From a virus: 64,000 bases of DNA. Below the pieces are notes generated by a model. It was given only the letters and a program-made list of their open reading frames with translations. It was not told where the DNA came from and searched no databases. Below are positions 6,109 through 64,000 of this stretch, one piece after another. Where the stretch lies: IMG/VR virus record IMGVR_UViG_3300033571_007537, positions 1 to 64,000 of that record. One strand, given 5' to 3'. Position numbers and translations under genes: made by a program. Numbering within the stretch: position 1 is the first letter of the stretch; each line of letters opens with the position of its first letter.

Positions 6109-6128
6109 GTCGGTTGTCCTGAGTCTGT

Positions 6129-6497
6129 CTATTCGGAAGTTGGAGGTTCGACTGGCGGGATGGACTCGTGCCCATCTCTCCACTCTATTATTAAGTCTAC
6201 CGCAAAAATTTTCCCATTCGTGTCTCTCCACGAATCATTTTTTCCAACCAATTTGTGCTCGTTGTTGCTGACGTCGGTGACAGTAATCTCAGAAATTGTG
6301 GTCGGGAGGTTTAGGTTAGCAAAGTCCTTTTTAACCACCTCTAAAGTCCAACCATTAGCAATGTCACATGGGAGTGCCCCACCCTCATATAGGGTGCCAT
6401 CTATGTTAGTTACTTTAAATCCCTGAGTAGCAACAGATTGAGTAGTCTCGTTGTAAAAAGTAGCGTGCACTACATCATTTACTTGAATGTTTGTCAT
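6129..6497 (-). CDS. Hypothetical protein at the end of the tail module
   Basis: 122 aa with AGGAGA RBS; follows the last minor tail gene. Confidence 0.65.
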   Translation of the reverse strand: MTNIQVNDVVHATFYNETTQSVATQGFKVTNIDGTLYEGGALPCDIANGWTLEVVKKDFANLNLPTTISEITVTDVSNNEHKLVGKNDSWRDTNGKIFAVDLIIEWRDGHESIPPVEPPTSE

Positions 6498-6508
6498 ATT
6501 ATCTCCTA

Positions 6509-12201: not shown

Positions 12202-12208
12202 AAGGTCC

Positions 12209-41131: not shown

Positions 41132-41323
41132 TTATAGCTCGTCATCAATCTTCTGATTAATGGAAAAGTCAGTTATTTTGCTGACATCATGGTGGATTGC
41201 AGCAGTGACTGGTTTCACTTCTGGTTTTGGTTCTGGCTTCTTTTTCTTAACAAGGTCTTCCAAATTATAAACTTGGTACTCGTCATCACCAGAGGTGAAT
41301 CTATCTAGGCGGTCTTTGTCCAT
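41132..41323 (-). CDS. Small hypothetical protein (63 aa)
   Basis: TAATG coupling to the upstream stop; contains a VTAA motif. Confidence 0.55.
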   Translation of the reverse strand: MDKDRLDRFTSGDDEYQVYNLEDLVKKKKPEPKPEVKPVTAAIHHDVSKITDFSINQKIDDEL

Positions 41324-49230: not shown

Positions 49231-49404
49231 GTATTTATTGTATCATGTCTGCGGCTAAGTTTATGTACTTTAATTAAAAATGATACCTTAACGTATTTTG
49301 CTTTTGGGGTGCGAGATGGCTGCGTATGTTTTCGCGACACGCCCGAATTGTTTCCTGTCCCGTTCAGGTTCTATCATAGATTCGCTTTTGCCAGAGCCTC
49401 AATT

Positions 49405-49920
49405 CCAGACAAAACAAACAACATCAAGCACATAAGCACACATCAAACAAGACAAACAAACAACAAACATCAAGAGTCAATCAACTCAATCAAACACACA
49501 CACACAAACAAGCACATAGACACATCAAACACACATCAACAACACATCAAGCACATCAAACACACATCAAGCAGACTTTTACTCAATCAAGCACATCAAA
49601 CACACACTAAGCACGCCCAGACACCCGTCTAGACCCACTTAGCACCCAGACCCACTTAGACACACCCAGACCCCCTTGAAGTCAATCCCAGACCCTCCCA
49701 GAGCAACTAAGCACACATCTAGGCACACAAACAAACACCCACTAGCCCAGACCCGCCCAGAGCAACCTAAATACCCAGCACAGCGACCAAACACCCGCCT
49801 CGATACGCCCCCAGCGACCAGACCCTCGCTCAAACACCCACCGCAACCCAGTAATCGCCCCATAGAGCCGTGTAGCCCTCAAAGAGCCGTGTAGCCCCCC
49901 AGACCCAGACACGCCCCCCA
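49405..49920. repeat. Strand-skewed low-complexity tract: A/C-rich repeats then C-rich repeats
   Basis: Imperfect AAGCACATCAAAC / ACACATCAA units up to about 49620, then CCCAGAC-like units; direct repeat AGAGCCGTGTAGCCC at 49864 and 49883. Confidence 0.85.
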
Positions 49921-49933: not shown

Positions 49934-49985
49934 ACACGCCGAACATCAAACTCAATTTGACAAACTATAAACAAAACCTCATACT
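49934..49985 (+). promoter_or_regulatory. Early-type sigma70 promoter with upstream ACACGCCG box
   Basis: TTGACA (49957) -N17- CATACT (49980). Confidence 0.8.
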
Positions 49986-50016
49986 TGATACATAGCCACT
50001 AGAAAGGAAATCACAA

Positions 50017-50277
50017 ATGGCAACTCGCAACTCAATCACCGCAATCGAAACCTATGATGTTCTAGGTGAAACAAAGTCAATCGCACCTACCACTCACGCA
50101 CTAGTAGAGGCGGTAACTTGGACTGAGGCAGGAGCAATCGCTACCGCACTAGACCACATGGCAAGCGACATGTCCGACAGTCCAGCAAGTCAGGCATACG
50201 CCACTTACCTCAGAGGCATTGCCCAGAAGTTCGAGGGCGTTCTAAACGCAATCGCAATCGCTAAGGGCATGGACTAG
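50017..50277 (+). CDS. Hypothetical early protein (86 aa)
   Basis: Own promoter, GAAAGGA RBS and downstream terminator. Confidence 0.8.
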   Translation: MATRNSITAIETYDVLGETKSIAPTTHALVEAVTWTEAGAIATALDHMASDMSDSPASQAYATYLRGIAQKFEGVLNAIAIAKGMD

Positions 50278-50287
50278 CCCCCAGCAA

Positions 50288-50325
50288 CAATAAACCCCTC
50301 TAGCAGGTTGCTAGGGGGGTTATTT
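50288..50325. terminator. Intrinsic terminator between convergent genes
   Basis: AACCCCTCTAGCA-GGT-TGCTAGGGGGGTT stem. Confidence 0.75.
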
Positions 50326-50352
50326 GCTACTGAGGCGACTTACGGCAAGCCT

Positions 50353-51756
50353 CTACCTAATCTTGAACCCTCCACCATTGCCACCTCTAAACGGACTAAT
50401 CTTGCGAGCACCCATAGAGCGGGCAGTAATCTTGCCACCACTAAACCCAGCAGGAGGCTTGATTAGAAGAGCCGTGAGGGCGTGAACCAACGCGTCCACG
50501 CGGTCAGGCGACTTGCCCTCTCCGGGAATCCAAGAATACATTTGCGATTCTAAGTCCGTGAGGTACCCGACATGATGGACGCGACCTTGCTCATAGGCAA
50601 GCGTGATAGGTTCTGCCCGCAACGCTTTTCCGTATTTGGAGTGAACCTCTAACACCGTGACGCTAGGGTCTATTGTGTGTATCGCGTTCTTCACTAATGC
50701 TCCACCTTGATTCACCTCCGCAACCACAGGGCAACCCCACTTGCGAGCCATCTCGACCACCCGCATTGCCCAAACATTAGGCGACCCCAAGACTGAGGCG
50801 TCCTCGACCACCCACGCTTGACGCTTATACAAATCTCTATCTGCCGTGCTTGAAACCACTACGATACCGCACTCATCTCGAGGGTTCTCCGCGACTGAGG
50901 GGTCTACCCCAATTACGCGAAGAGGCGTGCTTGAGGGGTAATTGCCGTGTCTATGCTTTTCAATCATTTCCTCAGTCCAGAGAGCACCCTCAACATTGTC
51001 CAACATCTCGCCATAAAGTTCTTGCTTAGCAAGTGAAGTTCCCGCGTATACGCCCAGCATTGTATCCAGATACGCACCAGAGAGGTTACCCGCATTGTCC
51101 AGCGTCGAGCCACGAGTTACGACCACATTGCGACCCTTATCCGCCTCCTCGAGCAACTTGTAGAGCAACGGCACACGCTTAGGAGTTGTAGTTACGACCA
51201 TTTTCGGATACGCACCCAAACGAGTTCCAACACGCAAGTTATCAAACGCAGTCATACCAGCCGCGTCGGGAGTCTGCCTCCAAGCCGCAATCTCATCTCC
51301 CCAAGCGTGAGTGAACTGAGGTCCACGCAGAGAGTCAGGCTCATCAGCAGTAAACAGAGTTGCCGTGTTGCCATTAGGCCAGGTCAGGCGACGCTTAGAC
51401 GGCTCATACAGAGGCTTTTCAGATGGAGGCGAAACATTCATAATCCCAGACTCACCCTCAACGATTACATCTCGCACATCAGCCGCAGTTCGGGCTACGA
51501 GGGCAAAACGGCGTTGCCCAGTTGTAGTGTATTTCGCTTGCTCCCGCACCCACTCAGAGGCGAGGCGAGTCTTCCCAAAACCACGACCCGCAAGCACTAA
51601 CCAGATGTTCCAGTCTTCACCCTCAGGGCAGAATTGCTCAGGGCGACCCCAGACAGACCAGTCCCAGAGCAGAGAGTCCGCGTCCATACCAGCCAGCACC
51701 ATCGCCCGTTCAGCCTCAGGGAGGTCAGCGATTTGTTCCATTATAGATTTACCCAT
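50353..51756 (-). CDS. terL: Terminase large subunit
   Basis: AGRGFGKT Walker A, LRGPQF..AWGDE, TTTP, GVDP, E.NQGG, SPDRVDA. Confidence 0.95.
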   Translation of the reverse strand: MGKSIMEQIADLPEAERAMVLAGMDADSLLWDWSVWGRPEQFCPEGEDWNIWLVLAGRGFGKTRLASEWVREQAKYTTTGQRRFALVARTAADVRDVIVEGESGIMNVSPPSEKPLYEPSKRRLTWPNGNTATLFTADEPDSLRGPQFTHAWGDEIAAWRQTPDAAGMTAFDNLRVGTRLGAYPKMVVTTTPKRVPLLYKLLEEADKGRNVVVTRGSTLDNAGNLSGAYLDTMLGVYAGTSLAKQELYGEMLDNVEGALWTEEMIEKHRHGNYPSSTPLRVIGVDPSVAENPRDECGIVVVSSTADRDLYKRQAWVVEDASVLGSPNVWAMRVVEMARKWGCPVVAEVNQGGALVKNAIHTIDPSVTVLEVHSKYGKALRAEPITLAYEQGRVHHVGYLTDLESQMYSWIPGEGKSPDRVDALVHALTALLIKPPAGFSGGKITARSMGARKISPFRGGNGGGFKIR

Positions 51757-51845
51757 CTTCCCAGTCTACCGCATCTTTTCCCGGTCTTCCGTGTGTTCCC
51801 TCCTCCGGGCCGGGCCGCCTTCATCAACTTTTCACGGAGCAACCA

Positions 51846-51897
51846 GACACGCCGAAGAACCTTCCAATTTGACAAACCAAACTTCATAGCCCATAAT
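51846..51897 (+). promoter_or_regulatory. Early promoter with GACACGCC box
   Basis: GACACGCCG (51846), TTGACA (51869) -N17- CATAAT (51892). Confidence 0.8.
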
Positions 51898-51939
51898 TAC
51901 TACATAAGCAAAAATGCTTATCCAACCAAAGGAGATTCA

Positions 51940-52299
51940 ATGACCACCACACTAAACACAATAACCGCAACTGCTACTGAATTTGGTTTTGACGCAGGTA
52001 TTACTTTCAGCACTCAAGAGCAACTTGATACTTTTATTGCTCTATTCCCAAAATCAACTAAAGTAGTTGCCACTCGCCTCACCACCCTTGACGGAGCAAC
52101 ATCTCCGCACGCTACTTTTGGTATTCGCCTAGTCGCAGATAATGTCAATGGCGGAACTAACGAAACAGGTCTCAAAAGACTTCACAAGTTCGTCGCGGTA
52201 GCAACTTCAAACGGATACGAAATCCACAACAACCCTTGCTACGGAAACTCACTAACCCAAGAAGCGTTCGACAAACTAATCGGGAGGGTGATTGCCTAA
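51940..52299 (+). CDS. Hypothetical early protein (119 aa; start reassigned to MTTTLN)
   Basis: AAGGAGATTCAATG leader; terminator at about 52320-52352. Confidence 0.8.
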   Translation: MTTTLNTITATATEFGFDAGITFSTQEQLDTFIALFPKSTKVVATRLTTLDGATSPHATFGIRLVADNVNGGTNETGLKRLHKFVAVATSNGYEIHNNPCYGNSLTQEAFDKLIGRVIA

Positions 52300-52506
52300 C
52301 GGCAACCCCGCCTCAACAAAGAAGCCCCCGCCCAGAAGCGGGGGTTTTCTTTTACCCGAAGCGAAGCGAAGCACTTGACTTTTTATAGAAAGCGTGATGA
52401 CCGACTTTTTTCGCCAACTTCCGGGTTTTCCGTGTGGTCCAGGTTTCCAGGCCCCTTCGCGATTTCCTCATCAAAACTTTTCATCAAAAGTTAGCCGTAT
52501 CCCGAT

Positions 52507-52536
52507 TTGACAAAACAATACCGCGTCCCTCATAAT
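52507..52536 (+). promoter_or_regulatory. Early promoter
   Basis: TTGACA -N18- CATAAT. Confidence 0.75.
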
Positions 52537-52579
52537 TGCTACATAAACAGAAATGTTTATCTGACCCCAAGGAGATTCA

Positions 52580-52906
52580 ATGACCAATTCAAACACCGCG
52601 ACTCAAACTGAACTACTAGACGCTTACATGATTGGCAACGGCGACTTCACTGATGTTGCTTGCCTAGACTGTGCCCGCGAGTTCGCAAGAACAAACAAAC
52701 TCAAGTGGGACTCTCCGTCCGAGGACACCTTCACGATTGAGAAGGGGACGGGTGCTTACGCCTCCTACATACACTCCTCCGAGGGTGAGGCGGACTCTCC
52801 GTATTCTTGTTGCGGACTTTACCTCCACACAAACTTCACCACTGAGGGCGAGGTTTACCTAATGGACGAGTTCCCGAGTTGGGTTGCGGAACTCTACGGG
52901 TTCTAA
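52580..52906 (+). CDS. Acidic Cys-containing early protein
   Basis: Same leader; CxxC and CC; terminator at about 52916-52950. Confidence 0.8.
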   Translation: MTNSNTATQTELLDAYMIGNGDFTDVACLDCAREFARTNKLKWDSPSEDTFTIEKGTGAYASYIHSSEGEADSPYSCCGLYLHTNFTTEGEVYLMDEFPSWVAELYGF

Positions 52907-53050
52907 CCCGAACACAAACTAGCCCCCTCCAAGTGAGGGGGTTTAGTTTTATCCGCCCGTAAATGCCCCGCTACGCCCCTCAGCGGGTGAGGGCGACTAA
53001 CTTTACCTACTACATCACTTCAACCCCTCAGCGGGCGTCCTAGACCCGAT

Positions 53051-53080
53051 TTGACAGATTGACCCCCTAACCCTCATACT
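53051..53080 (+). promoter_or_regulatory. Early promoter
   Basis: TTGACA -N18- CATACT. Confidence 0.75.
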
Positions 53081-53122
53081 TGATACATAGAGCAGAGATG
53101 CTCCCCGACTAAAGGAGATTCA

Positions 53123-53329
53123 ATGAGCAGTTATTACGATTACCAAGATGACGCGGATTACGCGAAGGAGATTTATTGGGAGGCGAAGGGACTTGGAAAC
53201 GCTAATCCTTCAACCGCAACTCCTAACCGCACTCCAGCACCTCAGATTGAATGCGAGAGATGCCACCGCAGAGGTTCAGCAGAACAAGTTGCTAGCCACA
53301 ACATCAAATACCCGAACTGTGCTGACTAA
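53123..53329 (+). CDS. Small Zn-finger-like early protein
   Basis: CERC...H...C; AAGGAGATTCAATG leader; terminator at about 53343-53380. Confidence 0.75.
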   Translation: MSSYYDYQDDADYAKEIYWEAKGLGNANPSTATPNRTPAPQIECERCHRRGSAEQVASHNIKYPNCAD

Positions 53330-53522
53330 CCCTCAGCACTCAAAGATTTCCCCTCGTAGAGATACGGGGGTTTTCTTTTATCCAAACTGAAGCAGAAGCA
53401 GAACACCAGCACTTGACTTTTCACGAAATTCGCGTAGCCCCGGCTATTCCGGGTTTTCCGTGTAGCTTCCCCGCAGCGAGCAACTTTTTACGAACTCCTC
53501 TTCAAAACTTTTTTTATTAGTC

Positions 53523-53563
53523 CGCGTGTCGATTTGACAAAATGTATGCCTATACCCCATACT
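53523..53563 (+). promoter_or_regulatory. Early promoter with adjacent GCGTGTC box
   Basis: GTGTC-N3-TTGACA (53534) -N18- CATACT (53558). Confidence 0.75.
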
Positions 53564-53606
53564 TGATACATAAGCAGAAATGCTTACCAACCTAAAGGAG
53601 ATTCAA

Positions 53607-53846
53607 ATGAAGAAAGTTGTTCTAGTTAGCAAGTCAGAAGGTCAGCGTGGACAGAACGGTAAGAAGAAGGTTTACGAGATTATCGTTGAAGGAAACAAAG
53701 TAGTTCTGTCTTGGGGTATGGCAGAGAAGTCAGTCCGTCAAACCAAGACCGAGTGGTTCAATAACCCTTACTCCGCAGAGAACTTTGTGTTCGAAAAGCA
53801 ATGGGAAAAGATTGCTAAGGGCTACGAAGTGGCATACACCGCGTAG
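53607..53846 (+). CDS. Stand-alone WGR-domain protein (start reassigned to MKKVVL)
   Basis: K.YEI.V.G..V..SWG....Q.....F.....A......EKIAKGY pattern, with WGM in place of WGR. Confidence 0.75.
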   Translation: MKKVVLVSKSEGQRGQNGKKKVYEIIVEGNKVVLSWGMAEKSVRQTKTEWFNNPYSAENFVFEKQWEKIAKGYEVAYTA

Positions 53847-53851
53847 CACTT

Positions 53852-53895
53852 ACGAAAAGACCCCCTAGTCGAAATGACTGGGGGGTTCTTTCGTA
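53852..53895. terminator. Bidirectional terminator at the +/- convergence point
   Basis: ACGAAAAGACCCCCTAGTC-GAAAT-GACTGGGGGTTCTTTCGT. Confidence 0.75.
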
Positions 53896-53901
53896 TCTGG
53901 A

Positions 53902-54486
53902 TTACCGCACTCGGTTCTTCTCCAAAATAGGGTGATAGACCTTGCTAGTTCCATTACTAGGTTTTAGGTAGCCGTATCTGGCAAGTCTAAATCTAATCGC
54001 ACCGTGAGTAGTTCCTAACCGCTTACCTAATCTGTAAAGCGTTACGCCCTCTGTTGTGTGTGAGTAATTTAGTAGCCTCGTGTATTCTTCTGCCTCTGCC
54101 CTAAACTTTGGTGAATTAGACCGCACCTTGCGTGCTAGAGGTTGAAGTTCTAGCAGTCGTGCCAAAGTTTCTGGCGAAGGTTCAATGTAAACTGGTGAAG
54201 GTTTTACGGGCTTCAATGGAAGTTCTGGAATAGTTAGTCCATAAGATTTCGTAAGTTCTTCAGCAGTCGAAGCGTCAGTAATTTTTGCCACTTGGCGAAC
54301 TCTCTCCCTTGACCAATGGAATAGTTCAGCGACACTTTGTAATGTCCACCCGTGATTTCTCAATGTGGTTGCGTAAGCGTTTCGTATTTCTTTCCACTCC
54401 GCAGTCGGAAGTGTTGCGTGAAGTTTCGCAACATCAGTCGCAACCTCAGTTGGAAGTTGGTGATTATTTTTCTTGAATTGAGTCAT
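53902..54486 (-). CDS. Tandem HTH DNA-binding protein (start reassigned to MTQFKK; paralog of 48721-49230)
   Basis: GWTLQSVAELFHWSRERVRQ (sigma region 4-like HTH) and GVTLYRLGKRLGTTHGAIRFRL. Confidence 0.8.
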   Translation of the reverse strand: MTQFKKNNHQLPTEVATDVAKLHATLPTAEWKEIRNAYATTLRNHGWTLQSVAELFHWSRERVRQVAKITDASTAEELTKSYGLTIPELPLKPVKPSPVYIEPSPETLARLLELQPLARKVRSNSPKFRAEAEEYTRLLNYSHTTEGVTLYRLGKRLGTTHGAIRFRLARYGYLKPSNGTSKVYHPILEKNRVR

Positions 54487-54591
54487 TTTGTTTTTCTTTC
54501 TCCGAGTTTTGTCCCGGTTTTCCGTGTTGAACTTTTGACGAAGAAGAAGCGGGACGCTGAGGTCCCGCACCTTCTTCAGTTTGGTTTGATT

Positions 54592-54978
54592 TTAGAAGCG
54601 ACGATTGTGATAAAAGTCTGAGTCCGAGATTGATTTTCCCGTTTCTTCTTCGAGTTCTATCTTCTCCGCACCGAGCATAATGCCCCATACATCGGATAGA
54701 AGATGAGCAAAGTTCTTACCGCGAGTTTGATAAACGCGGTTCTTGAAGTTTGGATAGTCAATCTTCAACGCTTGTTCCGCAACCCACGCTGACCACTCTG
54801 AGTCCTCGATGATTACTCTATACGGGTAGTCCGTATTAGTCTTCTTGATAATCTTCGCACCCGTAAAGTCCACGATGCTTCTGAGGGATTTCTTGTCCCT
54901 CGCACGAACTGTGATTTCGTCTTTGTCATTTTTGTATCGAATCGCCGAAACGAATCCATTTTCAGTAAATAGCCACAT
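54592..54978 (-). CDS. Conserved phage hypothetical protein
   Basis: MW.F...GF.S, VRAR, DYPYR, IDYPNFK pattern; GAGAGGA RBS. Confidence 0.75.
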   Translation of the reverse strand: MWLFTENGFVSAIRYKNDKDEITVRARDKKSLRSIVDFTGAKIIKKTNTDYPYRVIIEDSEWSAWVAEQALKIDYPNFKNRVYQTRGKNFAHLLSDVWGIMLGAEKIELEEETGKSISDSDFYHNRRF

Positions 54979-55097
54979 AAGTATTTGTCCTCTCGTCTTT
55001 GTGTCTTACCGCAAGGAGAAATCTACTCCTTGCTAATCAAGTCTTGAGTTATGCCCTTACGGCGTTATCACAATGTTATCATTTACACTTGTGCTTG

Positions 55098-55265
55098 TCA
55101 AGCCCGGAGATTTAGGACGGCAAGAGCAAGCGCAGAAGCACCCAGTCCCACTACCGCAGACAGTTCTCCTCCGACTAACACCAGCACAATAGTCCCAGCA
55201 ACAAGAAGCAAAGACCCAACAGCAGTCCAAGCAACCTCCCGCAGTAAAGCGAATAATCTATTCAT
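55098..55265 (-). CDS. Small membrane protein (55 aa, about 2 TM), missing from the ORF track
   Basis: MNRLFALLREVAWTAVGSLLLVAGTIVLVLVGGELSAVVGLGASALALAVLNLRA; GAGGAG RBS; ATGA coupling. Confidence 0.7.
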   Translation of the reverse strand: MNRLFALLREVAWTAVGSLLLVAGTIVLVLVGGELSAVVGLGASALALAVLNLRA

Positions 55266-55420
55266 TTCTTTTTCTCCTCAGTTTGTTTTGGAAGCACAAC
55301 TCCCAGAAGGGGTTGAACCTTTCTTGATTTTCTCTCCACCCAGATAACAATCCCAGTAGTGAGCAACGCTGAGGCGACCAGCACCGCAACGAGAAGTTGA
55401 GTAGCGTCGAAGTTAGTCAT
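55262..55420 (-). CDS. Small membrane protein (52 aa, 1 TM), missing from the ORF track
   Basis: MTNFDATQLLVAVLVASALLTTGIVIWVERKSRK...; overlaps its neighbours by 4-8 nt. Confidence 0.6.
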   Translation of the reverse strand: MTNFDATQLLVAVLVASALLTTGIVIWVERKSRKVQPLLGVVLPKQTEEKKK

Positions 55421-55529
55421 CGTCTAGCCCACTCTCCGTGCCCTCAACGAACACCGCAGTAATCATCGCCAGCACAAATACCCCAGCAAGAATTCCAAAT
55501 CCGCCCAGTATCCATAAAAAGATTTCCAT
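55413..55529 (-). CDS. Small membrane protein (38 aa)
   Basis: MEIFLWILGGFGILAGVFVLAMITAVFVEG...; AGGAGA RBS. Confidence 0.65.
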   Translation of the reverse strand: MEIFLWILGGFGILAGVFVLAMITAVFVEGTESGLDDD

Positions 55530-55670
55530 TGTTTCTCCTAAATCATTTGACACATCACACTCTAACATAAAAATCTTCTGAGGCACCATCTTTTCCGGGT
55601 AGTCCGTGTAGCTTCCGCCATCGCACAAAAAACTCCCTCACCCTGAGGCGAGAGAGTTCTTCGATTTTGT

Positions 55671-55835
55671 TTACGCTAGTTCAGGTTTCTTTATTCTGAC
55701 CATACGCCTAACTCGAAAGTTGGCGTCAATTGGAATTATTCCCGCACGCATAGCCCAGTAAAACAGTTCATACTCCTTGCGAACCGCAAACTTATCCAGT
55801 TCAGCAATTCTTTCTTGCGTTAGTTTCTTTCTCAT
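55671..55835 (-). CDS. Small basic protein (54 aa), missing from the ORF track
   Basis: MRKKLTQERIAELDKFAVRKEYELFYWAMRAG...; GAAAGGA RBS; hairpin downstream. Confidence 0.65.
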   Translation of the reverse strand: MRKKLTQERIAELDKFAVRKEYELFYWAMRAGIIPIDANFRVRRMVRIKKPELA

Positions 55836-55859
55836 TTGATTTCCTTTCACTTGTTATAA

Positions 55860-56018
55860 CTACTTATCTTTGAGATTTATTCCCGCCCTAGAACGACGCT
55901 TACGCTTAGGCGGAACATAGAAGTAATTCACCCACAAAGACCGCGACACGACCGCGAGGAGGGCGAACCCAGTAGCAACCGCGACCATTGACAGAACCAG
56001 CACAGTTGATTTGTCCAT
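55860..56018 (-). CDS. Small membrane protein (52 aa) with basic tail, missing from the ORF track
   Basis: MDKSTVLVLSMVAVATGFALLAVVSRSLWVNYFYVPPKRKRR... Confidence 0.6.
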   Translation of the reverse strand: MDKSTVLVLSMVAVATGFALLAVVSRSLWVNYFYVPPKRKRRSRAGINLKDK

Positions 56019-56021
56019 TGA

Positions 56022-56186
56022 CTATTTCCCCGCTTTCTTTCTGAGGTCAAAGTAATAAAGAACTAGCGACTGAGCAATCAAAATAGTTCCGAGTCCCGCA
56101 CCAATTACAAACGAGTTCACGCCCTCTGAGGTTGCCCCAACAAAGTAAGCGAACGCCCCAAGTAGGAATACTAAATACTTCAACAT
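56022..56186 (-). CDS. Small membrane protein (54 aa, 2 TM; start reassigned to MLKYLV)
   Basis: Two hydrophobic segments; AAGGTGG RBS. Confidence 0.65.
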   Translation of the reverse strand: MLKYLVFLLGAFAYFVGATSEGVNSFVIGAGLGTILIAQSLVLYYFDLRKKAGK

Positions 56187-56188
56187 AA

Positions 56189-56407
56189 CTAGCCCACCTT
56201 TCTTGCCAAGTTCAAAACTTGTGGAGCAAAGGTTAGGAACACCGCACCTAGTCCACCAATCCAAAGTCCAGTTGCCCAAACTTCACTAGCACTTGAACTA
56301 GCACCCGCACCCGCACCTACCATCAACGCGTAAGCAAACAAGTAAGCACCCGCAACGAACGGAACTGCTATTAGTCCTACTACTGCTCTACGAAAATAAA
56401 ACTTCAT
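56189..56407 (-). CDS. Small membrane protein (72 aa, 2 TM)
   Basis: AAGGAGA RBS; two hydrophobic helices. Confidence 0.75.
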   Translation of the reverse strand: MKFYFRRAVVGLIAVPFVAGAYLFAYALMVGAGAGASSSASEVWATGLWIGGLGAVFLTFAPQVLNLARKVG

Positions 56408-56648
56408 TTATTTCTCCTTTTGTCTTTTAGTCTTTCGACTTACTACAAAGGTAGCACATAACCCAATTGAACGCAAGTCCATTTCACCTCAGCGTGTCGC
56501 ACTTGACAAAAGTCTTCCTTCGTGAAAAGTCTTCCTCCGTAAAAAGTTGAACGAGTTAGGCAACCCTAACTTTTCCGGGTGCTCCGTGTGAAGTCCCCGC
56601 GTCAAAAAAAAAATCCCCGCCATTTCTGACGGGGAAACTTTTTACTGA

Positions 56649-56837
56649 CTAACCCAAGTCTGGGTAGTAAGGTGTTGGGTCGCAACAACCGATACAAGAA
56701 CCGAACGCTGTGCTGTATCTGGTTTCATCTACCAAAGGGTTATCTGCTGTGATTAGTTCTTCGCAGTCTGGGCAGGTTTCAGGTGCTAGTCCTACTAGGT
56801 TTGCTACGAAGTTGATGTTTGTGAAGTTGGTAATCAT
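56649..56837 (-). CDS. Small Cys-rich protein
   Basis: CPDC...CIGCC; own promoter, RBS and terminator. Confidence 0.7.
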   Translation of the reverse strand: MITNFTNINFVANLVGLAPETCPDCEELITADNPLVDETRYSTAFGSCIGCCDPTPYYPDLG

Positions 56838-56987
56838 TTGAGTTCCTTTCTTGAACTACTACAATGGTAATGCTTTTGTTTAGGTTTGTCAAGTTCATTT
56901 GACGGCGTGTCGTGAATAACAAAATCCCCCCTGCTGTGTGCTGACAAGGGGGATTTTTTGAGTGTGTCCGACACTCGGCGGGTTCTT

Positions 56988-57176
56988 TTACTTTTCCAAG
57001 TCTTCCAAGTTTTCCATCTCTTCAACAATCTTCATAATTCTTGCTTGCTGAGTTCCATCTAGACTTGCCCAAGCCAATCCAAAAGCGTATGAGTAAGGGT
57101 GTGTGCTTGCCATACCTGCTTTTAGTTCTAGTGCTTCGATTAGGTCGCTTGAGTTGATGTAAGTGTTAGTTGTCAT
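56988..57176 (-). CDS. Small hypothetical protein
   Basis: Own promoter, GAAAGGA RBS and terminator. Confidence 0.75.
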   Translation of the reverse strand: MTTNTYINSSDLIEALELKAGMASTHPYSYAFGLAWASLDGTQQARIMKIVEEMENLEDLEK

Positions 57177-57242
57177 TTGAGTTCCTTTCTCGAACTACTA
57201 CAATTGTATTGCTTTTGGTGTTGCTTGTCAAATCCAAAACAT

Positions 57243-57389
57243 TTACGGCGTGTTGTGAACTTCGTGAACACTAACCCGCACTCGTGATAATCCCTCTGAG
57301 ATTGCCCACTCGTGAACTCGTGCTTCGGCTTCGCGTTCTGTATCTGCTTTTACTAAGAAGATGTTTCCGTATCCATTTACCTCGAACAC
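57243..57389 (-). CDS. Possible small protein (48 aa, GTG start)
   Basis: MFEVNGYGNIFLVKADTEREAEARVHEWAISEG...; start overlaps the upstream stop. Confidence 0.45.
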   Translation of the reverse strand: MFEVNGYGNIFLVKADTEREAEARVHEWAISEGLSRVRVSVHEVHNTP

Positions 57390-57577
57390 TATGACCCCTG
57401 TCCGTAAAGTGAAAACCTAATTGTGTTTTCTGGATTAGCACTCTCGGCAATAAGTTTGCGAGTGTTGCTGATAATTCTTTCGGCGTCTTCCCAAGTGTGA
57501 ACTTCGTAAAGAGGAGAAAGAACTTCTTCTCCATTGCTGTTGATGATGTTGATTACTAGTGTGTCTATTCTTGCCAT
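57389..57577 (-). CDS. Small hypothetical protein
   Basis: GAAAGGA RBS and promoter at 57630. Confidence 0.75.
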   Translation of the reverse strand: MARIDTLVINIINSNGEEVLSPLYEVHTWEDAERIISNTRKLIAESANPENTIRFSLYGQGS

Positions 57578-57965
57578 TTTATTTTTCCTTTCTCTGGCGT
57601 GTTTCTATTGTAAGACTTTGAGGTCATCTTGTCAAATTGTATGTTGAGTCAGTTTAGCCACCCCTCGCGGGATTTATAACTCAGGTGGTCGCCTGTTGCT
57701 GTAAGTCGCATCTTCTACAACTCTGGCTCATACCAACTCCATCTCGGCTGGCTGAGGCTAGGACACTATGCGAGTTCCTAACTCGTAGAACTACTATACC
57801 CAACTTCTTCCTTTGGATTAGCAACTCCTCCCCAACTTCACACGAGTCTTCGTCAAAAGTTTCCGCCCGCGGTCGAGGCTTCCATCTATTCCCAGTATTC
57901 CGTGTAGCTTCGAGGTAAAAAGAAACCCCCGCAAGTTTCCTCACGGGGGATTTCTTTTTGAGCGA

Positions 57966-58643
57966 TTACCTACTCGAAGCGAACAATAGAGATTTCTGCT
58001 GTTCTCTTTCCCTCTGTGCTTTTTGTTCTTTGAAGGATTTATTTTCTAGAACCCGCACATAAGTAATCGTTGAGTAAGTCCCGCCCCAATTCTTTATTGA
58101 AGCGACACTCGTAACTTGTCCGCGATTTCCGCCAGCGTGAATCATTTTATCTTTTCCAAGATAAATCGCGACGTGGTAGATGTTCTTGCTTCTCGTGTAT
58201 GAAAAGATAACAAGGTCGCCTACCTTTGGCTTCTTAGTTACTTTACCCGCGTGGCGTTGTTTGGAAGCAGAGTGTTCAAGTTCAACACCTATCTTGCCAT
58301 AAGCCCAGCGTGTCATACCTGAGCAGTCCCACCCTCGCGGGGTAGACCCTGAGAATACATACCAAGTTTTACCAACTTGATTTCTCAAAGTCTTCACCAT
58401 CTTTTTTATTTTGACGGCGTTGCTATTTAGTTTTTTGTTTTTAGCAATCTCTTTTACCATAAGAGTTTGTCTTGCTTCTTGACTTTCCAGCGACTCAAAG
58501 AAGTTTGCTGATGAAGTTGTTGAAACATTTGTTGCTTTTATGTTTATTGACTCGGCGGTCATCTTAGGCTCTTCTGCGTTTGACGGCGTAGAACCAGATA
58601 ACACGAGTAGCGTTGCTAATCCGATTGTCAGTAACCTTTTCAT
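57966..58643 (-). CDS. Secreted NlpC/P60 peptidoglycan endopeptidase
   Basis: Signal peptide (MKRLLTIGLATLLVLSG...SNA), YVFSG....WDCSG, GDLV.F, HVAIYLG...MIHA. Confidence 0.9.
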   Translation of the reverse strand: MKRLLTIGLATLLVLSGSTPSNAEEPKMTAESINIKATNVSTTSSANFFESLESQEARQTLMVKEIAKNKKLNSNAVKIKKMVKTLRNQVGKTWYVFSGSTPRGWDCSGMTRWAYGKIGVELEHSASKQRHAGKVTKKPKVGDLVIFSYTRSKNIYHVAIYLGKDKMIHAGGNRGQVTSVASIKNWGGTYSTITYVRVLENKSFKEQKAQREREQQKSLLFASSR

Positions 58644-58752
58644 TTAGCGACCTACCTTTCCTGGTTTTACGAGTTAGCACTCGGTCGTTTATTGTTGGGG
58701 TTCTCCCTGATGTTTCGCTATTCAGTTATCACTCGTCCAAAGGACAAGTTCC
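58644..58752 (-). ncRNA. Structured 5' leader resembling a reduced c-di-AMP (ydaO/yuaA) riboswitch
   Basis: CTGAAT ... CAGGGAGAACCCC ... CCGAGTGCTAACTCGT in the ydaO order, upstream of an NlpC/P60 gene; TATACT -10 at 58756-58761. Confidence 0.45.
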
Positions 58753-58898
58753 TCCAGTATACCCAAAAAGAGTGGAAAAAACCTAATCCTCCAAGTTTTC
58801 CGGGTAGTCCGTGTCAGGCGTCCCTCCCGAAATCCGCGTCAAACCAACGAAGAATCCCCCCACCTTTCGGCAGGGGGTTCTTCCAAAGTGTGTCGGAA

Positions 58899-59231
58899 TT
58901 AGGCGAACCAAGTCTTCCTGAGTCCCTCAATCTGTGAATCTGAGAGTCCAATCGTATCTCCCTCGTCATCTGTTCCACCTGTGAATACGGCAGTTCCAAC
59001 GATGACATCGGTAGCACCAAAGAACTCGTTCCACATCACAGTTCCAAAGGCGTTGAATGGTAGACCTACCATCTTGCCCTCTTCGTTCACCCAAAGGGTC
59101 AGAGTCGGGGTCAGGTCTATTGCTTGAATCCAACCATCAACTAATCCTTGAAGAGTTTTCAATTCGTTTCCTGCGATGTCCACAACTGAGAAAATCCCAT
59201 CTGGAGTTATTGCTACGGCGTTCTTAGTCAT
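58899..59231 (-). CDS. DUF3846-like protein
   Basis: LQ.LV.GWI.AI, VNEEGK..GLP.N, DVIVG.AVFTG. Confidence 0.8.
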   Translation of the reverse strand: MTKNAVAITPDGIFSVVDIAGNELKTLQGLVDGWIQAIDLTPTLTLWVNEEGKMVGLPFNAFGTVMWNEFFGATDVIVGTAVFTGGTDDEGDTIGLSDSQIEGLRKTWFA

Positions 59232-59394
59232 TTTGTTTTCCTTTCTATTGACTACAATTACTATCTTACGCGTTCAATCGGCGTTTGTCAAATTAGACAC
59301 GCCAAAGGTAAAACCCCCCTACCTAAAGGAAATCTAAAAGGTAGAGGGGTTTTGAAGGAGGGGCTGGTTAGGAGCAACCCCCTCCTCCAACTTC

Positions 59395-59721
59395 TTACAG
59401 GTTTTGTAAGAAAGTGTATTCAGTTTGGGTCAGCGTTTCGGCATACGCTTCTGGAAACATCTCGGCAAGTTTCTTGCCATCTGTTCCCTTGCGAGTTCTT
59501 GAAGCAACCTTGACGACAACCATGCCCTCAACTAATCCTGCTTCGGCGTTGCCTAGTGCTTCGCGAAGAATTGCTTCGGCGTTAGCCTTCTGCTCTTCAA
59601 GAGCCTTGATGGCTTCCTTAGCGTTAGCAAAGTCGGCAAGTGCCTTCTGTGCTTCGGCGTTCAGTTCTACTGCTGTGGTGCTGGTGGTGATTACCTGAGT
59701 GTTCTTTACAATGCTGTTCAT
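59395..59721 (-). CDS. Coiled-coil early protein (paralog of 63481-63795)
   Basis: ALG.AE, D.KKLAEMFPEAYAETL. Confidence 0.8.
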   Translation of the reverse strand: MNSIVKNTQVITTSTTAVELNAEAQKALADFANAKEAIKALEEQKANAEAILREALGNAEAGLVEGMVVVKVASRTRKGTDGKKLAEMFPEAYAETLTQTEYTFLQNL

Positions 59722-60056
59722 TGGTTATCTCTTTCTGTTAGGTAAGCATTTCTGCTTATGTATCTAAGGTAGCCTATTTGATTTGATTTGTCAAATCCAT
59801 TTGGTTCTCGGCGTGTCGTTTGTTGTTGCCTCCCCCTCAGCCCGACCTAAGGAATAAATCTGAGGGGGAGGTTTACCAATCAACCAACCAAGGGAATCAA
59901 CCTTGATAACTAAAAGATACCATCTCAGGTTTCGTTTGTCAAATCGAGATGGGACGGCGTTCTTCGTAAAAAGTTGAAGGGAAGCACCAGCCCACACGGA
60001 ACTCCGGGAAGAGGATAAAAAGAAACCCGACGAGATTTCTCCCATCGGGTTTTCTT

Positions 60057-60350
60057 CTACCTAAGTTCTGACAACACTTCTTTCGAGAACCCCTCTGGGA
60101 CTTCATCTGGGATTCTCCAAGAGGCGAGTCTTAGCCCTGCGTCAATCACAATGGACGGAACATCTGTGCGTAGACTCTTTGCCCAAGTTTCCAAGAACGC
60201 TGAGGATACTTCTTTATGCCCGCGTTCAACCTCGCTGAGGTATCCAAGTGCGATGGTCGCCTCAGTAGAAACTCTCCTGAGTGTGTAGCCCAACTTGTGT
60301 CGGCGTTCACGGAGGATTTCTCCTAGTGCGTCTTTATACATTAGCGTCAT
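60057..60350 (-). CDS. XRE-family HTH regulator, ClgR-like
   Basis: LGEILRERR...G.TLR.VS..A.IALGYLSEVERG.KE.SS matches the actinobacterial ClgR signature as I recall it. Confidence 0.8.
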   Translation of the reverse strand: MTLMYKDALGEILRERRHKLGYTLRRVSTEATIALGYLSEVERGHKEVSSAFLETWAKSLRTDVPSIVIDAGLRLASWRIPDEVPEGFSKEVLSELR

Positions 60351-60636
60351 CTGAACCTGCTTTCTTTTCTTCTCGCAACCTCTTTTGACGGAGGCGTTCT
60401 TTTTCGATTAGTTCCGCATACTTTTCCGGGAAGTTTTCACGGAGGTTGTTCAAATACTTCTGACGCTTGACTCTGTTGTATTCACGGTAAGCGTCTGGGT
60501 CTGTTTCTTTCAAACGCTTTATCCAATCATTACTGCGTCCCGCGTATTTTTCTTTGTTCTTCTGGTAATACAATTTAGCGTATTCCCGCTGTGCTTGCCT
60601 CAGTTCTTCGAGGGTCGTGTATTTCTGTTTCGGCAT
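60334..60636 (-). CDS. Basic helical protein (start reassigned to MPKQKY)
   Basis: K/R/Y-rich repeats; TAATG coupling with the upstream gene. Confidence 0.65.
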   Translation of the reverse strand: MPKQKYTTLEELRQAQREYAKLYYQKNKEKYAGRSNDWIKRLKETDPDAYREYNRVKRQKYLNNLRENFPEKYAELIEKERLRQKRLREEKKAGSDDANV

Positions 60637-61106
60637 TATTTCTTTTCCTCTCCTGCTTCGGCGTGTAGAACTTGTGCTTGACCAATTGCGTCTTCTAGCG
60701 AGTGGTATGGCTCTGAGAAAAACTCTGGGTCTTTCTCTGTGTAAACTTCGAACCACGAGTTGTTCTGCCAAGAGAAAACTTCTTCTCCCTTGTTTGACCA
60801 CTCTTCGAGTTGCTGGTCATTAGTTATACCAAACTCTTCGAGTTTGTCTGTGTAGCGAATAACCTCAATGTGTCCGTCGTCTGTTGTTGCGTGGATACGC
60901 ATTTCTCCATTACGAACCACATAGTAGTCGCAACTCTCGTGTTCCCATACAACTTCTACTCCGGGTTCATTTGTGAAAAACGCTGAGTCATTTCTTGTTT
61001 CCATTTTGTATGTTCCTTTCTCTGAACAATTGTGGGTGTTTGGTGCTTCTGGCGTTTGCGAGTATCCGCAATCGAAACACACATACAAAGTATTACTCTG
61101 TGTCAT
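60636..61106 (-). CDS. Acidic hypothetical protein (start MTQSN at 61106; alternative METRN at 61004)
   Basis: Both starts have an RBS; promoter at 61158. Confidence 0.7.
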   Translation of the reverse strand: MTQSNTLYVCFDCGYSQTPEAPNTHNCSEKGTYKMETRNDSAFFTNEPGVEVVWEHESCDYYVVRNGEMRIHATTDDGHIEVIRYTDKLEEFGITNDQQLEEWSNKGEEVFSWQNNSWFEVYTEKDPEFFSEPYHSLEDAIGQAQVLHAEAGEEKK

Positions 61107-61269
61107 TATTGCTTCTCCTCTTTCTGTTATTACTAAGGTATCAAGTAAAAAGATGTTTGTCAAATCCTGAGTCTGACGGCGGGTCGTCAAAAGTTTTCCG
61201 GGGGTTCCGTGTGCGTCTTCAAACAAAAAAGAAACACCCGCGTTCCCGCGAGTGCTTCCCTCGAAACTT

Positions 61270-61494
61270 TTACTGCTTGAGATGACCCTTGAGGAAATTA
61301 CTCGGGTGTCGAGCAATACTTGCTTCAAGCCCCTTTGGGTCTGGGTTCGGCACACCTGCTTCGCTTGAAACAACTATAATTCGATACTTTGTTCCTGACC
61401 AACTCAGGAACGCCATCGCATAATCTTTCGCTTCTTGCTGAGTTGCGAACTCGTAAGGGAGAACTCCCTGCTTAGTTTCTACTTTGAAAATCAT
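61270..61494 (-). CDS. Small hypothetical protein (start MIFKVE)
   Basis: GAGAGGA RBS; promoter at 61541. Confidence 0.65.
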   Translation of the reverse strand: MIFKVETKQGVLPYEFATQQEAKDYAMAFLSWSGTKYRIIVVSSEAGVPNPDPKGLEASIARHPSNFLKGHLKQ

Positions 61495-61598
61495 TTGTTT
61501 CCTCTCTTTCTGTATCAAGTATTACAAATACTTTTAGTTTTGTCAAGCCCGACACGCGGTAAAACCCTCACCTTTTGATGAGGGTTTCCGCGTAGCCC

Positions 61599-61871
61599 CT
61601 AGACTTCCCAGGGTTCATCGAACTCGGCACTAGCAAGGTGGTCTTCCCTAATCTCTTGTAGGTGCTGTTCAACGAACTGCTTGAACGCATCTAGGTTCTT
61701 TTCAATGCGAGGTTCGCCCTTTGCGTAATCCCAAACGTTGATGATGTCAAACGCTGACTTTGGAAATAAATCTGTGTCTAAATCTCTAAAGAAGATTTCA
61801 ATGTATTCGCCACCGCTCCAAACGAAACGCATGTCTTCTGTGCTGTCGTAAACCATCTTTGCTTTTGCCAT
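61599..61871 (-). CDS. Hypothetical early protein
   Basis: GAAAGGA RBS, promoter and terminator. Confidence 0.75.
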   Translation of the reverse strand: MAKAKMVYDSTEDMRFVWSGGEYIEIFFRDLDTDLFPKSAFDIINVWDYAKGEPRIEKNLDAFKQFVEQHLQEIREDHLASAEFDEPWEV

Positions 61872-62095
61872 TTTTATTTTCCTTTCGTTGGCTATGTATC
61901 AAGTATAGGGTTTATGCCCGCATCTGTCAAATCCAAACTTTGAACGGCGTGTCCCATAAAAAGTTGCGAAGGGAGGGCCGAGATGCTGAACTTATCCGGG
62001 GCTTCCGTGTGGAGGGACGCGGCGGAAAAACTTTTCACGAAGAAAAAAAAACACCCCCTCCCAAATCGGGAGGAGGCATTTTTATTTAGCAGAAC

Positions 62096-62347
62096 TTATC
62101 TGTCGTTATACTCGTCGTAGCGGTCTGCCTCGTAGTCATCTCTGTCATCAGAGATAGAACTCTCTAAATAGGTTGAACCGCAGAACTCGCACTCAATCGC
62201 GTAGTTGCCGTAGTCATCAGTTGTGGTTTCACCCGCACCATTTTCTTTTAGGCACTCGTCGTTCTCACACTCGAACTCGTCGTATGAAACTTCTTTGGCA
62301 TAAATGCCTGAACCCATCATTGAACCATCTGGATAGTTGTCGCTCAT
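62096..62347 (-). CDS. Very acidic Zn-ribbon-like protein (start MSDNYP)
   Basis: About 25 D/E versus 5 K/R in 83 aa; C....C and CEFC. Confidence 0.75.
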   Translation of the reverse strand: MSDNYPDGSMMGSGIYAKEVSYDEFECENDECLKENGAGETTTDDYGNYAIECEFCGSTYLESSISDDRDDYEADRYDEYNDR

Positions 62348-62457
62348 TTTGTTCCTTTCTCGAACAATTACTACATTACAGGAAACGGCACAGCAAGTCA
62401 AATCGCCACGCCGAAGAAGAACCCCCCGCACTCGGCGGGAGGTCTTCTAGCGAACGC

Positions 62458-62889
62458 CTAGACGTTCTTGGCACAGACCGGGCCGATACCAACCGCAACC
62501 GACTTAGGGTCAGTTAGGAACTTGGCACAGACACAGCAGAAACCAGTTTCTACTCCGAACGCTTTTGCCTCGTCAAGACTCATCTTGTCCGAAGACTTTA
62601 GTGTGCGAATAGCACCAGAGGCGAAGATGAACTTCATCTCGATAATGTCCAACTTCTTTGCGTAGAGGTTGCCAGACTCCAGCGAACGCTGAACGCGGAA
62701 GATTTCGTCGCCCTTGCGATACATACCCTCTTCTTCAACGCCACCCGCAGTTGGCATTGCTAGCAGTTGTGCGATTAGGTTTGACGCGTCTTTCGAGGTC
62801 ATTGTTGAGAAATCAACCGCGTCGCTGACGCCACGCTCTACGCGTAGGTTGTTGATGAAACTTACTTGCTTGATGGTGATTGGGTTCAT
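62458..62889 (-). CDS. DUF6011-like Zn-finger protein
   Basis: CCVCAKFLTDPKSVAVGIGPVCA; N-terminal T.KQ..FI..L. Confidence 0.8.
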   Translation of the reverse strand: MNPITIKQVSFINNLRVERGVSDAVDFSTMTSKDASNLIAQLLAMPTAGGVEEEGMYRKGDEIFRVQRSLESGNLYAKKLDIIEMKFIFASGAIRTLKSSDKMSLDEAKAFGVETGFCCVCAKFLTDPKSVAVGIGPVCAKNV

Positions 62890-63139
62890 AATTTGTTCCT
62901 TTCTCGAACAATTACTACATTAGCCTAAATCGGCGTTGATGTCAAATTAGAAAGATTACGGCGTGTCGTCTTTTTCTTCTCCTTCCTCTTTTTCTTTTTA
63001 CGAGTTCCATCAAAAGTTGCGAAGGGACGCAAGGCGTCTTGCGAGTTTTCACCAACCGCGACTTTTCCCGGTGTTTCGTGTTGCCCGCACACATAAAAGA
63101 AAGCCCCCGCATTTCTGCGGGGACTTCCTCAACCAACCC

Positions 63140-63355
63140 TCACCACGAGGTTTTTTCGGCGAACTCCTTTTGATGTTCTACCGAGAACTTGATGTTCGGG
63201 ATTGTTTCCGCGAACTTCGGCATTTCATTTTTCAAAATGCCCTCCACGATTGCGAACTCTTTTGCTGGAAGTTTCTTGTAAAGCGTTTCCAACATTGAAC
63301 GCATACCCGCGTTAGCACCGAACTCGTAAATCTCTATCTTTTCATTTTTACCCAT
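63140..63355 (-). CDS. Small hypothetical protein (start MGKNEK)
   Basis: GAGAGGA RBS; promoter at 63410. Confidence 0.65.
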   Translation of the reverse strand: MGKNEKIEIYEFGANAGMRSMLETLYKKLPAKEFAIVEGILKNEMPKFAETIPNIKFSVEHQKEFAEKTSW

Positions 63356-63480
63356 TTTTATCTTCCTCTCTCTGGGTGATGTATCTATTGAACCATACTT
63401 ACCGCAATAAGTCAAATCTCGTGCCTCCCCGCGTGTCGCGAGGTTGAGGGCGGGTTTCCCCGCCCCCTCGCTCACCGCCC

Positions 63481-63795
63481 TTAGAGGGTGATGATTTTTA
63501 CTACTGGTGTTTCGCGGAGGGTTTCCGCGTAAGCCTCTGGGAACTTTTCCGCAAGGGCTTTGAGGTCATTGCTACGACGAGTTGAAGTTTGTGTCTTGTA
63601 GACCACAACGCCTCCAAAAGTCGCCTCCTCTGCCTCGCCAAGAGCATTTAGCAAATGCTCTTTGAGCATTGCCTCTTTCTTGGCAAGTTCACGCTGAGTT
63701 TCTCGCAACTGGGCGAGTTCCAAAGCGTTCTGGACTAGAACTGCTGATACCTCAACTGAGGTTGAGATAGTGGTGCTGGTAGTGATTTTAGCCAT
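63481..63795 (-). CDS. Coiled-coil early protein (paralog of 59395-59721)
   Basis: ALGEAE, DLKALAEKFPEAYAETL. Confidence 0.8.
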   Translation of the reverse strand: MAKITTSTTISTSVEVSAVLVQNALELAQLRETQRELAKKEAMLKEHLLNALGEAEEATFGGVVVYKTQTSTRRSNDLKALAEKFPEAYAETLRETPVVKIITL

Positions 63796-64000
63796 TTGTG
63801 ATTTCCTTTCTAGTGGCTGATGTATCTATTGAACCACAACTGATTACATTTGTCAAATCGAACTTGCCTCTGGCGTGTCGCGTGTTTGTTCAGTTGTGTA
63901 GTTCTTTGGTGCTAAGTCAATTATGAGGGACTACATACCTTTTTGTCAAATCGAGATTTGATGAGAGATGACGCAACTTTTCACGAAGCGAAGCGAGGCA

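Follow-up and report, generated by a model that had tools for sequence, protein, structure and literature searches.

What is the short, two-part sequence box that recurs among the small early genes of an uncultured actinobacteriophage, and what may it be for? The locus lies in IMG/VR record IMGVR_UViG_3300033571_007537, whose positions 1 to 64,000 form the stretch analysed here (the window); they are the first 64 kb of a viral contig of 90,990 bp, linear, 53% complete according to CheckV and without an end repeat. An earlier note on the window had listed twelve copies of CCSGG-N4-CCGTGT and had read them as a directional ruler, or loading-site array, on the terminal DNA. With moderate confidence, the box may instead be taken for an operator-like site of a phage-encoded protein with two helix-turn-helix (HTH) modules, acting at the boundaries of early transcription units; the best candidate for this protein, here called B, is in relatives encoded next to the large terminase gene (terL). 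That a protein binds the box, which protein it is and the sign of its effect are what we infer from sequence.

The contig belongs to an actinobacteriophage, its portal protein being 73% identical to that of Actinomycetia phage DSL-LC01 and 64% to that of Microbacterium phage Pumpernickel. To the left of terL are the genes for portal, capsid and tail, small genes occupy the - strand from 54 to about 75 kb, and a + strand island of four cassettes is found at 51.9-53.85 kb. Early promoters have the form GACACGCC-N13-TTGACA-N17-(-10) and are oriented with the genes, on the + strand at 49957, 51869, 52507 and 53534, and on the - strand from 56.9 to 74.2 kb. The GACACGCC motif, about 13 nucleotides (nt) upstream of TTGACA, was observed in about 20 early promoters, from 49934 to 63885 and on to 74.2 kb, and it is present also in the relatives L084, L093, L097, L100 and L126.

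Ten exact matches to CCSGG-N4-CCGTGT were found in the window, compared with none in 100 dinucleotide-preserving shuffles, and the copies at 57891 and 63067 carry one mismatch each, so that all twelve listed positions do hold the box. Several other particulars of the earlier description also stand: eleven of the twelve copies are on the + strand, the exception being that at 59994; gaps between copies measure 641-1316 bp; the 5' flank is T-rich; transcription flips from + to - near 53.9 kb; and exact, loose and weight-matrix scans detect no copy in 1-49 kb. The array does not end at 63081, as had been supposed, since six further sites follow between 64000 and 76306. Three of them, 64000(-), 66240(+) and 75260(+), were detected by scanning the whole contig, and three weaker ones, 67824(-), 74213(+) and 76306(+), were added by a weight matrix (PWM) built from 15 sites and scanned over the contig.

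The full box, with consensus CTTTTCCnGGTnTTCCGTGT, is about 20 bp long and asymmetric; the weight matrix resolves two conserved blocks, a free spacer and unconserved flanks. Conservation limited to about 20 bp, without conserved flanks, points to selection on contacts rather than on a duplicated segment. The contig holds 18 box sites, all intergenic, 15 on the + and 3 on the - strand (binomial p = 0.008). Half-sites included, they are confined to 49.9-76.3 kb of the contig, and the weight matrix gives nothing above background in 1-49 kb or 77-91 kb. When the 18 sites are compared with the local gene direction the ratio is 12:6, hence gene direction is not followed.

The position of the box within its gap is far more constrained. 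In the orientation of the genes, a box-bearing gap consists of an intrinsic terminator, the box, one or more copies of AACTTTTNAYG and a promoter. The box lies 15-42 nt after the terminator stem, and a sigma-70-type promoter is found 34-121 nt beyond it; for boxes of the + strand island the distances are 77-79 nt from the terminator and 70-74 nt to the -35 hexamer. Nine genuine - strand terminators were reported by the scan between 54 and 63.2 kb, and each of the nine is followed by a box 15-42 nt later. Boxes are found at about half of the gene-cassette boundaries of the early arm, as the region of early-type cassettes is called here, and the gaps which contain them are longer (105-335 nt) than those without (64-163 nt; Mann-Whitney p = 9e-5). 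The motif AACTTTTNAYG, found on both strands around the boxes (window positions 51825-63988) and similar to the 5' extension of the box (CTTTTCC), is shared with L084 only. Coordinates and local context of the individual sites are given in Table 1.

Table 1. Box sites of the window, listed in order, followed by half-sites and by the genes discussed in the text. Distances are in nt; PWM, weight-matrix score; aa, amino acids.
Feature	Position	Strand	Context	Remarks
Box	51780..51794	+	Divergent gap between terL and first + strand cassette	Exact; PWM 31.9; inverted in orthologous L084 gap
Box	52421..52435	+	+ strand island; 77 after terminator 52325-52344; 71 before -35 at 52507	
Box	53449..53463	+	+ strand island; 79 after terminator 53351-53370; 70 before -35 at 53534	
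Box	54513..54527	+	26 upstream of protein A start codon; 22 after terminator 54568-54549	Place and orientation kept in L084, L197 and L198
Box	55595..55609	+	27 after weak hairpin 55648-55636	Kept in L224, L197 and L198
Box	56575..56589	+	25 after terminator 56635-56614	
Box	57891..57905	+	21 after terminator 57949-57926	One mismatch (CCCAG); PWM 27.4
Box	58800..58814	+	42 after terminator 58877-58856; upstream of NlpC/P60-like gene 57966-58643	Inverted in orthologous L084 gap
Box	59994..60008	-	15 after terminator 60052-60023; 51 before -35 at 59942-59937	Same orientation in L240, inverted in L084
Box	61198..61212	+	15 after terminator 61262-61227; 34 before -35 at 61163-61158	
Box	61996..62010	+	37 after terminator 62083-62047; 65 before -35 at 61930-61925	
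Box	63067..63081	+	16 after terminator 63130-63097	One mismatch (TCGTGT); PWM 30.1
Two right-hand half-sites (CCGTGTAGCCC)	49864..49897 (49864, 49883)	+	Upstream of early-type promoter 49957+	19 bp apart
Large terminase gene (terL)	50353..51756	-	Early-type cassettes with box sequences on both sides	
Protein A, 194 aa	53902..54486	-		Two sigma-region-4-like HTH modules
Protein B, 169 aa	48721..49230	-		Paralogue of A; two HTH modules, flexible linker

The regularity of the array was evaluated on 23 intergenic gaps, listed by hand between 54.4 and 68.5 kb, 12 of which contain a box. Spacing is more even than expected if gaps were chosen at random, with a coefficient of variation (CV) of 0.16 in the window part (P about 1e-4) and of 0.33 over 54-68 kb (P = 0.004). 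The evenness at about 1 kb is real and is explained only partly by cassette structure. The claim that spacing is independent of gene structure survives in this part only: boxes sit in long gaps after terminators, which contradicts it, while their evenness exceeds that of a random choice of gaps.

In order to establish which of these properties are general, relatives were collected by a terminase search of IMG/VR, which returned 441 sequences, and 80 loci were kept. A loose pattern of the box gives a single match in only two of them (L018 and L145). In L084, the closest relative, whose terL product is 92% identical, eight copies of ACACGGAA-N4/5-YGGAA followed by AAsTT were detected, with the right half-site in common with the box of this phage, a spacing of 843-1463 bp and an orientation ratio of 5:3. 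The two phages have four orthologous gaps, in each of which the box keeps its place; it is inverted in three, upstream of terL and in the 59994 and 58800 gaps, the orientation being the same only upstream of the gene for protein A. A metagenome scan with the exact box returned mostly chance matches, along with four true relatives, L197, L198, L224 and L240, whose orientations in the frame of this phage are 4:2, 4:1, 2:0 and 1:2, respectively. L240 keeps the - strand exception at 59994, whereas at other places these relatives show flips. The corresponding scan of viral collections gave chance matches only, except for the relative L018, and a longer box pattern found no match in public collections. 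The box itself is absent from phage DSL-LC01, in which no search for a lineage-specific variant was made.

More distant relatives contain arrays of the same design built on other sequences. The 102-kb record behind L085 (G001) has 14 copies of GCGTGGAAAA-N7-ACCCTT, all within the 22 kb adjoining terL, and 10 of the 14 sites lie 0-40 nt after the T tail of a terminator. L100 and L126 contain CATGGAAAA-N6-ACCCTT, and a further variant is found in L123 and L128. Neither polarity nor period is maintained among these phages. Orientation in the five relatives with homologous or analogous arrays is 5:3 (L084), 6:8 (G001), 5:4 (L100), 4:9 (Microbacterium phage Cece) and 3:5, and that of L126 is 4:1. 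The CV of spacing is 0.21 in L084, 0.42 in Cece, 0.60 in Pumpernickel, 0.67 in L100 and 0.84 in G001, so that even spacing is a property of this phage and of L084. Hence the array cannot be called directional, being unbiased in five relatives and inverted at three of the four orthologous gaps; nor does it behave as a ruler, since spacing is not conserved over the family (CV 0.21-0.84, and 0.42-0.84 in four relatives) and the tight relation is to terminators and promoters instead. While close relatives are strongly different in the cassettes that they carry, box positions persist, and in relatives the box may abut the -35 hexamer, at 3-12 nt, in both orientations. In L018, L084 and L197 a box is found just after the terL stop.

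The placement of the array on terminal DNA, also proposed in the earlier note, is in contrast supported by cultured phages. In Pumpernickel (186,095 bp, linear) ACGCARRAGAA-N6-YCTAAT is found eight times at 4.4-18.2 kb; all eight sites recur at an offset of 166,132 bp, and there are no others. As its genes 302-353 repeat genes 1-52, all boxes are comprised in a direct terminal repeat of 20.0 kb. In Cece, CGCAAG-N8-CACTAA occurs 13 times at 2.4-16.9 kb and again with an offset of 168,434 bp (direct terminal repeat of 18.1 kb); 9-10 of the 13 sites follow a hairpin and its T tail by about 4-20 nt and precede a promoter. No box site was found in the unique parts of the two genomes (146-150 kb). 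The early arm studied here is syntenic with these repeats. Beyond the window, contig positions 76298-77230 encode a homologue of gp1, the product of the first gene of Cece and Pumpernickel, annotated as small terminase in Cece; positions 75356-76117 match the endolysin at the left end of both genomes (75356-77230 corresponds to L083:356-2230); and the gene for protein A is the last gene of their terminal repeat. Given the synteny from the gp1 homologue to gene A, the region 54-77.4 kb probably represents a long direct terminal repeat in collapsed form, and this phage is predicted to have its physical left end near 77.3-77.5 kb.

Taken together, these features are consistent with a site at which occupancy matters. 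A two-block design kept throughout, with a sequence specific for each lineage, is the pattern expected of a site co-evolving with its own reader. Free orientation, with flips at orthologous gaps, fits an action by occupancy and argues against a promoter or RNA element; combined with the variable distances, it makes precise contact with the polymerase less likely. The constant place and the occurrence only at early-type cassettes, on both sides of terL, tie the box to early transcription units, and the fact that copies flank terL wherever such cassettes occur is more readily explained by transcription units than by some property of the DNA end. In the proposed mechanism, a sequence-specific protein encoded by the phage would read the two unlike half-sites of the box, which would mark the main boundaries of early units, shortly behind an intrinsic terminator and before the sigma-70-type early promoter that follows. 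Once bound, the protein would most likely affect transcription at this point: it could form a steric roadblock, or insulator, and so prevent read-through into the following cassette or, alternatively, could provide a handle for switching off the whole early arm later in infection. Between the box at 54513 and gene A no sigma-70-type promoter was found; this copy, which has no promoter behind it in four phages, would gate read-through into A.

Two paralogous proteins, A and B, were considered as readers. They are 26% identical over 147 residues (E = 7e-4), both are family-wide, with homologues in Microbacterium phages Pumpernickel, Cece, Big4, Zooman and A3Wally, and each consists of two HTH modules joined by a proline-rich linker. 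B corresponds to gp76 of Pumpernickel and gp60 of Cece, A to gp49 and gp45, respectively. The first HTH of A follows the pattern of sigma-70 region 4.2 (Pfam Sigma70_r4, E = 1e-7). Between this phage and Pumpernickel, and in every box class, neither recognition helix of A has changed, although the boxes themselves are completely different; this makes A an unlikely reader of the variable box positions, and it was rejected as such. Protein A might rather read the invariant pair formed by the -35 hexamer and GACACGCC.

The recognition helices of B, on the other hand, fall into classes which match four box classes: KA/H (this phage, L084 and L018), QY/N (L085, L100 and L126), QY/F (L123 and L128) and RY/Y (Pumpernickel and Cece). 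Classes of B with a common helix 1 also have a common short half-site. The structure predicted for B shows two helical modules and a flexible linker (mean pLDDT 86). A fold search with this model gave nothing significant, as the model consists of two small helical modules on a flexible linker, and a profile search of solved structures returned weak HTH matches only. B thus appears to be the best, still weak, candidate reader of the box. Two other proteins were discarded. The 86-aa protein at 50017-50277 is limited to the box-bearing L018 and L084, but is acidic and without a DNA-binding signature; the XRE-type HTH protein at 60057-60350 is present in too few relatives.

Several observations weigh against an operator read by B. 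The match between classes of B and classes of box follows clades, and could reflect phylogeny alone. L093, L124, L140 and L162 encode a B of KA/H type, and no array was found within 10 kb of their terL; the early arm of these four may lie farther than that from terL, as in Pumpernickel. In relatives B adjoins the large terminase, in all of them lying between the terminase genes and the portal gene, and its position among packaging genes fits a packaging role too. Many early promoters, equally good, have no box, and four shorter elements made of a hairpin and a T tail, recognized by eye in short gaps upstream of the promoters at 59286, 61541, 62396 and 63410, also lack it. The statement that every terminator has a box is therefore true for terminators reported by the scan and is broken by these four, in agreement with the earlier remark that some cassettes have none. 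Box-less hairpins and box-less promoters indicate that the box is not needed for termination or initiation as such. Moreover, neither the + strand bias (15:3) nor the even spacing of this genome is predicted by an operator, and sequence cannot tell roadblock, repression and activation apart. In L093 itself, where no box was detected, nine leader hairpins (AGTTAGGTAA...CCTAAC) were observed at 2571-13426, directly after early promoters; they have an analogue in the duplicated leaders which follow promoters in this window.

The strongest of the alternatives, though an unlikely one in our judgement, is that the boxes label the long terminal repeat for some transaction on the DNA rather than for transcription: a terminase-associated protein (B or gp1-like) would read them so that the repeat can be defined, duplicated or held during packaging, or so that the DNA which enters first is tethered in stepwise entry. 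All sites of the two complete genomes are inside the 18.1-kb and 20.0-kb repeats and none in the unique part, the arm of this phage is syntenic with the repeat, and B has the genomic position just described. The repeat is, however, also the sole place with early cassettes, and the restriction is confounded. In addition, the sites at 51780, 52421, 53449 and 49864/49883 lie beyond gene A or on the far side of terL, as do the boxes after the terL stop in L018, L084 and L197, and the corresponding region of Cece and Pumpernickel is outside the repeat. Fairly even spacing here, in L084 and in Cece, and the strand bias of this genome, would be accounted for; yet orientation and spacing are not conserved, and the tight placement between terminator and promoter is left with no reason beyond this being the only free space. 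A bolder version, which we consider quite unlikely, regards the array as an identity code of the 18-23 kb repeat, by which a terminase-linked two-HTH protein would tell repeat from unique DNA at packaging or entry. Such a code could serve the duplication of the repeat at packaging or the holding of the first-entered segment, the placement between terminators and promoters being secondary.

Little credence is given to an upstream promoter element, activator- or UP-like, which would strengthen the early promoter that follows and be recognised either by a host factor or by the host RNA polymerase together with a phage cofactor. The box is always upstream of an early promoter, it abuts the -35 in relatives and its 5' extension is like the nearby AACTTTTNAYG; yet in this phage the distance to the -35 varies over 34-121 nt without helical phasing, relatives show both orientations beside the -35, the copy before gene A has no promoter downstream, and many early promoters do equally well without a box. 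A lineage-specific sequence is also ill-suited to a conserved host factor. Even less probable is a box without a function of its own, spread by duplication and exchange of cassettes as part of a mobile or recombining terminator-promoter module: the cassette architecture (terminator, conserved boundary sequences, early promoter, small open reading frames (ORFs)) does recall the PeSL elements of T4-like phages (PMC4122927), and box positions persist amid cassettes of strongly varying content, but conservation comprises two short blocks and a free spacer rather than a copied segment, the same two-block design recurs with different sequence across genera, and inversion in place of the box alone is not predicted.

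Other identities were rejected outright. A promoter for another sigma factor or polymerase would include a conserved element at a fixed distance, and none was found on either side or in either orientation; the earlier view that the box is not a core promoter element is borne out, as neither a -10 nor a -35 keeps a constant distance from it on either side. A single-strand hairpin of the N4 type, or an RNA element, is excluded by a potential stem of only 3 bp (about -1.9 to -2.8 kcal/mol, z-scores +0.4 to -3.3), by the absence of an Rfam family (the scan of 49-64 kb gave one sub-threshold chance match only) and of any tRNA. A polar genome-orienting sequence, such as Chi or KOPS, would not be polar in this genome only, as the box is, polarity being absent in relatives, including two with known ends.

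Some features of the window were noted apart from the array. Just downstream of terL and before gene B, many relatives contain a short tract of tandem repeats, conserved in position and lineage-specific in sequence (window 49300-49900; about 12.0 kb in L162; 12.4-13.1 kb in L140 and in L093), which in this phage holds the likely promoter region of the structural operon. The head module, at 41323-45681 and 31371-41006, encodes a protein of 1452 aa in which several ADP-ribosyltransferase domains were recognised (Pfam ADPrib_exo_Tox, 4 stretches) and contains a 3211-aa ORF without Pfam match. Two paralogous small early proteins, at 59395-59721 and 63481-63795, match the C-terminal part of the PHROG family of RecE-like recombination exonucleases (E = 1.5e-11 and 2.4e-9, respectively).

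The family concerned includes cultured Microbacterium phages of about 186 kb and hundreds of uncultured relatives in public viral collections, and its early arm is apparently organised by one recurring, undescribed element, a two-part box of 20-25 bp of which each lineage has its own. Should a phage protein read the box, this would represent a new way for a lytic phage to insulate or shut off its host-takeover region, and would supply a natural set of orthogonal protein-operator pairs. Should the box mark the terminal repeat, it would bear on how long terminal repeats are recognised and duplicated. Both possibilities are directly testable, Pumpernickel and Cece being in culture.

Among known systems, the stoperators of cluster A mycobacteriophages (L5 gp71, TipsytheTRex repressor) are the closest. 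They are 13 bp long, genome-wide and oriented with transcription, and reversal abolishes their function; they act on transcription elongation and initiation, as part of temperate-phage immunity (PMC9283540). They are lineage-specific, and a solved structure shows how a monomer with two DNA-binding domains reads the asymmetric dispersed site, a precedent for the operator reading preferred here (PMC9283540). As with stoperators, many copies of a short asymmetric site are found in short intergenic spaces of an actinobacteriophage; unlike them, the box is about 20 bp long, bipartite, restricted to the early arm, free in orientation and located just after terminators. A strict stoperator of L5 type was accordingly rejected, as the earlier note had already argued from orientation: the ratio relative to local genes is 12:6, the box is confined to the early arm and no integrase or resolvase was found, Phage_integrase and Resolvase giving no match in the contig, itself 53% complete. 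No repressor was found either, and the family looks lytic.

The PeSL elements of T4-like phages are units of terminator and early promoter which bound small variable ORF cassettes in a hyperplastic region (PMC4122927, PMC2839356). They consist of the promoter and the stem-loop themselves, and no separate, lineage-specific, orientation-free protein-binding box has been described for them. The early arm is similar in having a terminator and then a sigma-70-type promoter at long gaps, and variable cassette content; it differs in that the box is a separate 20-bp element between promoter and terminator, with its own pattern of conservation.

Phage P1 provides a further parallel, its C1 operators being asymmetric 17-bp sites, present in more than a dozen copies in either orientation and read by one repressor. 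In P1, a temperate phage, the operators are spread over the whole genome and overlap promoters, unlike the box, which follows terminators and in Cece and Pumpernickel is confined to the terminal repeat. T5 and SPO1 have a long direct terminal repeat with short early or host-takeover operons, provided with strong host-type promoters and terminators, and the SPO1 DNA-binding protein TF1 prefers sites at early promoters of the repeat. No dispersed array of bipartite boxes is known in either repeat, and the entry-stop and nick sites of T5 differ in kind from the box. Judged from its sequence features, the box belongs with the dispersed asymmetric operator arrays, as a family-wide variant not described before.

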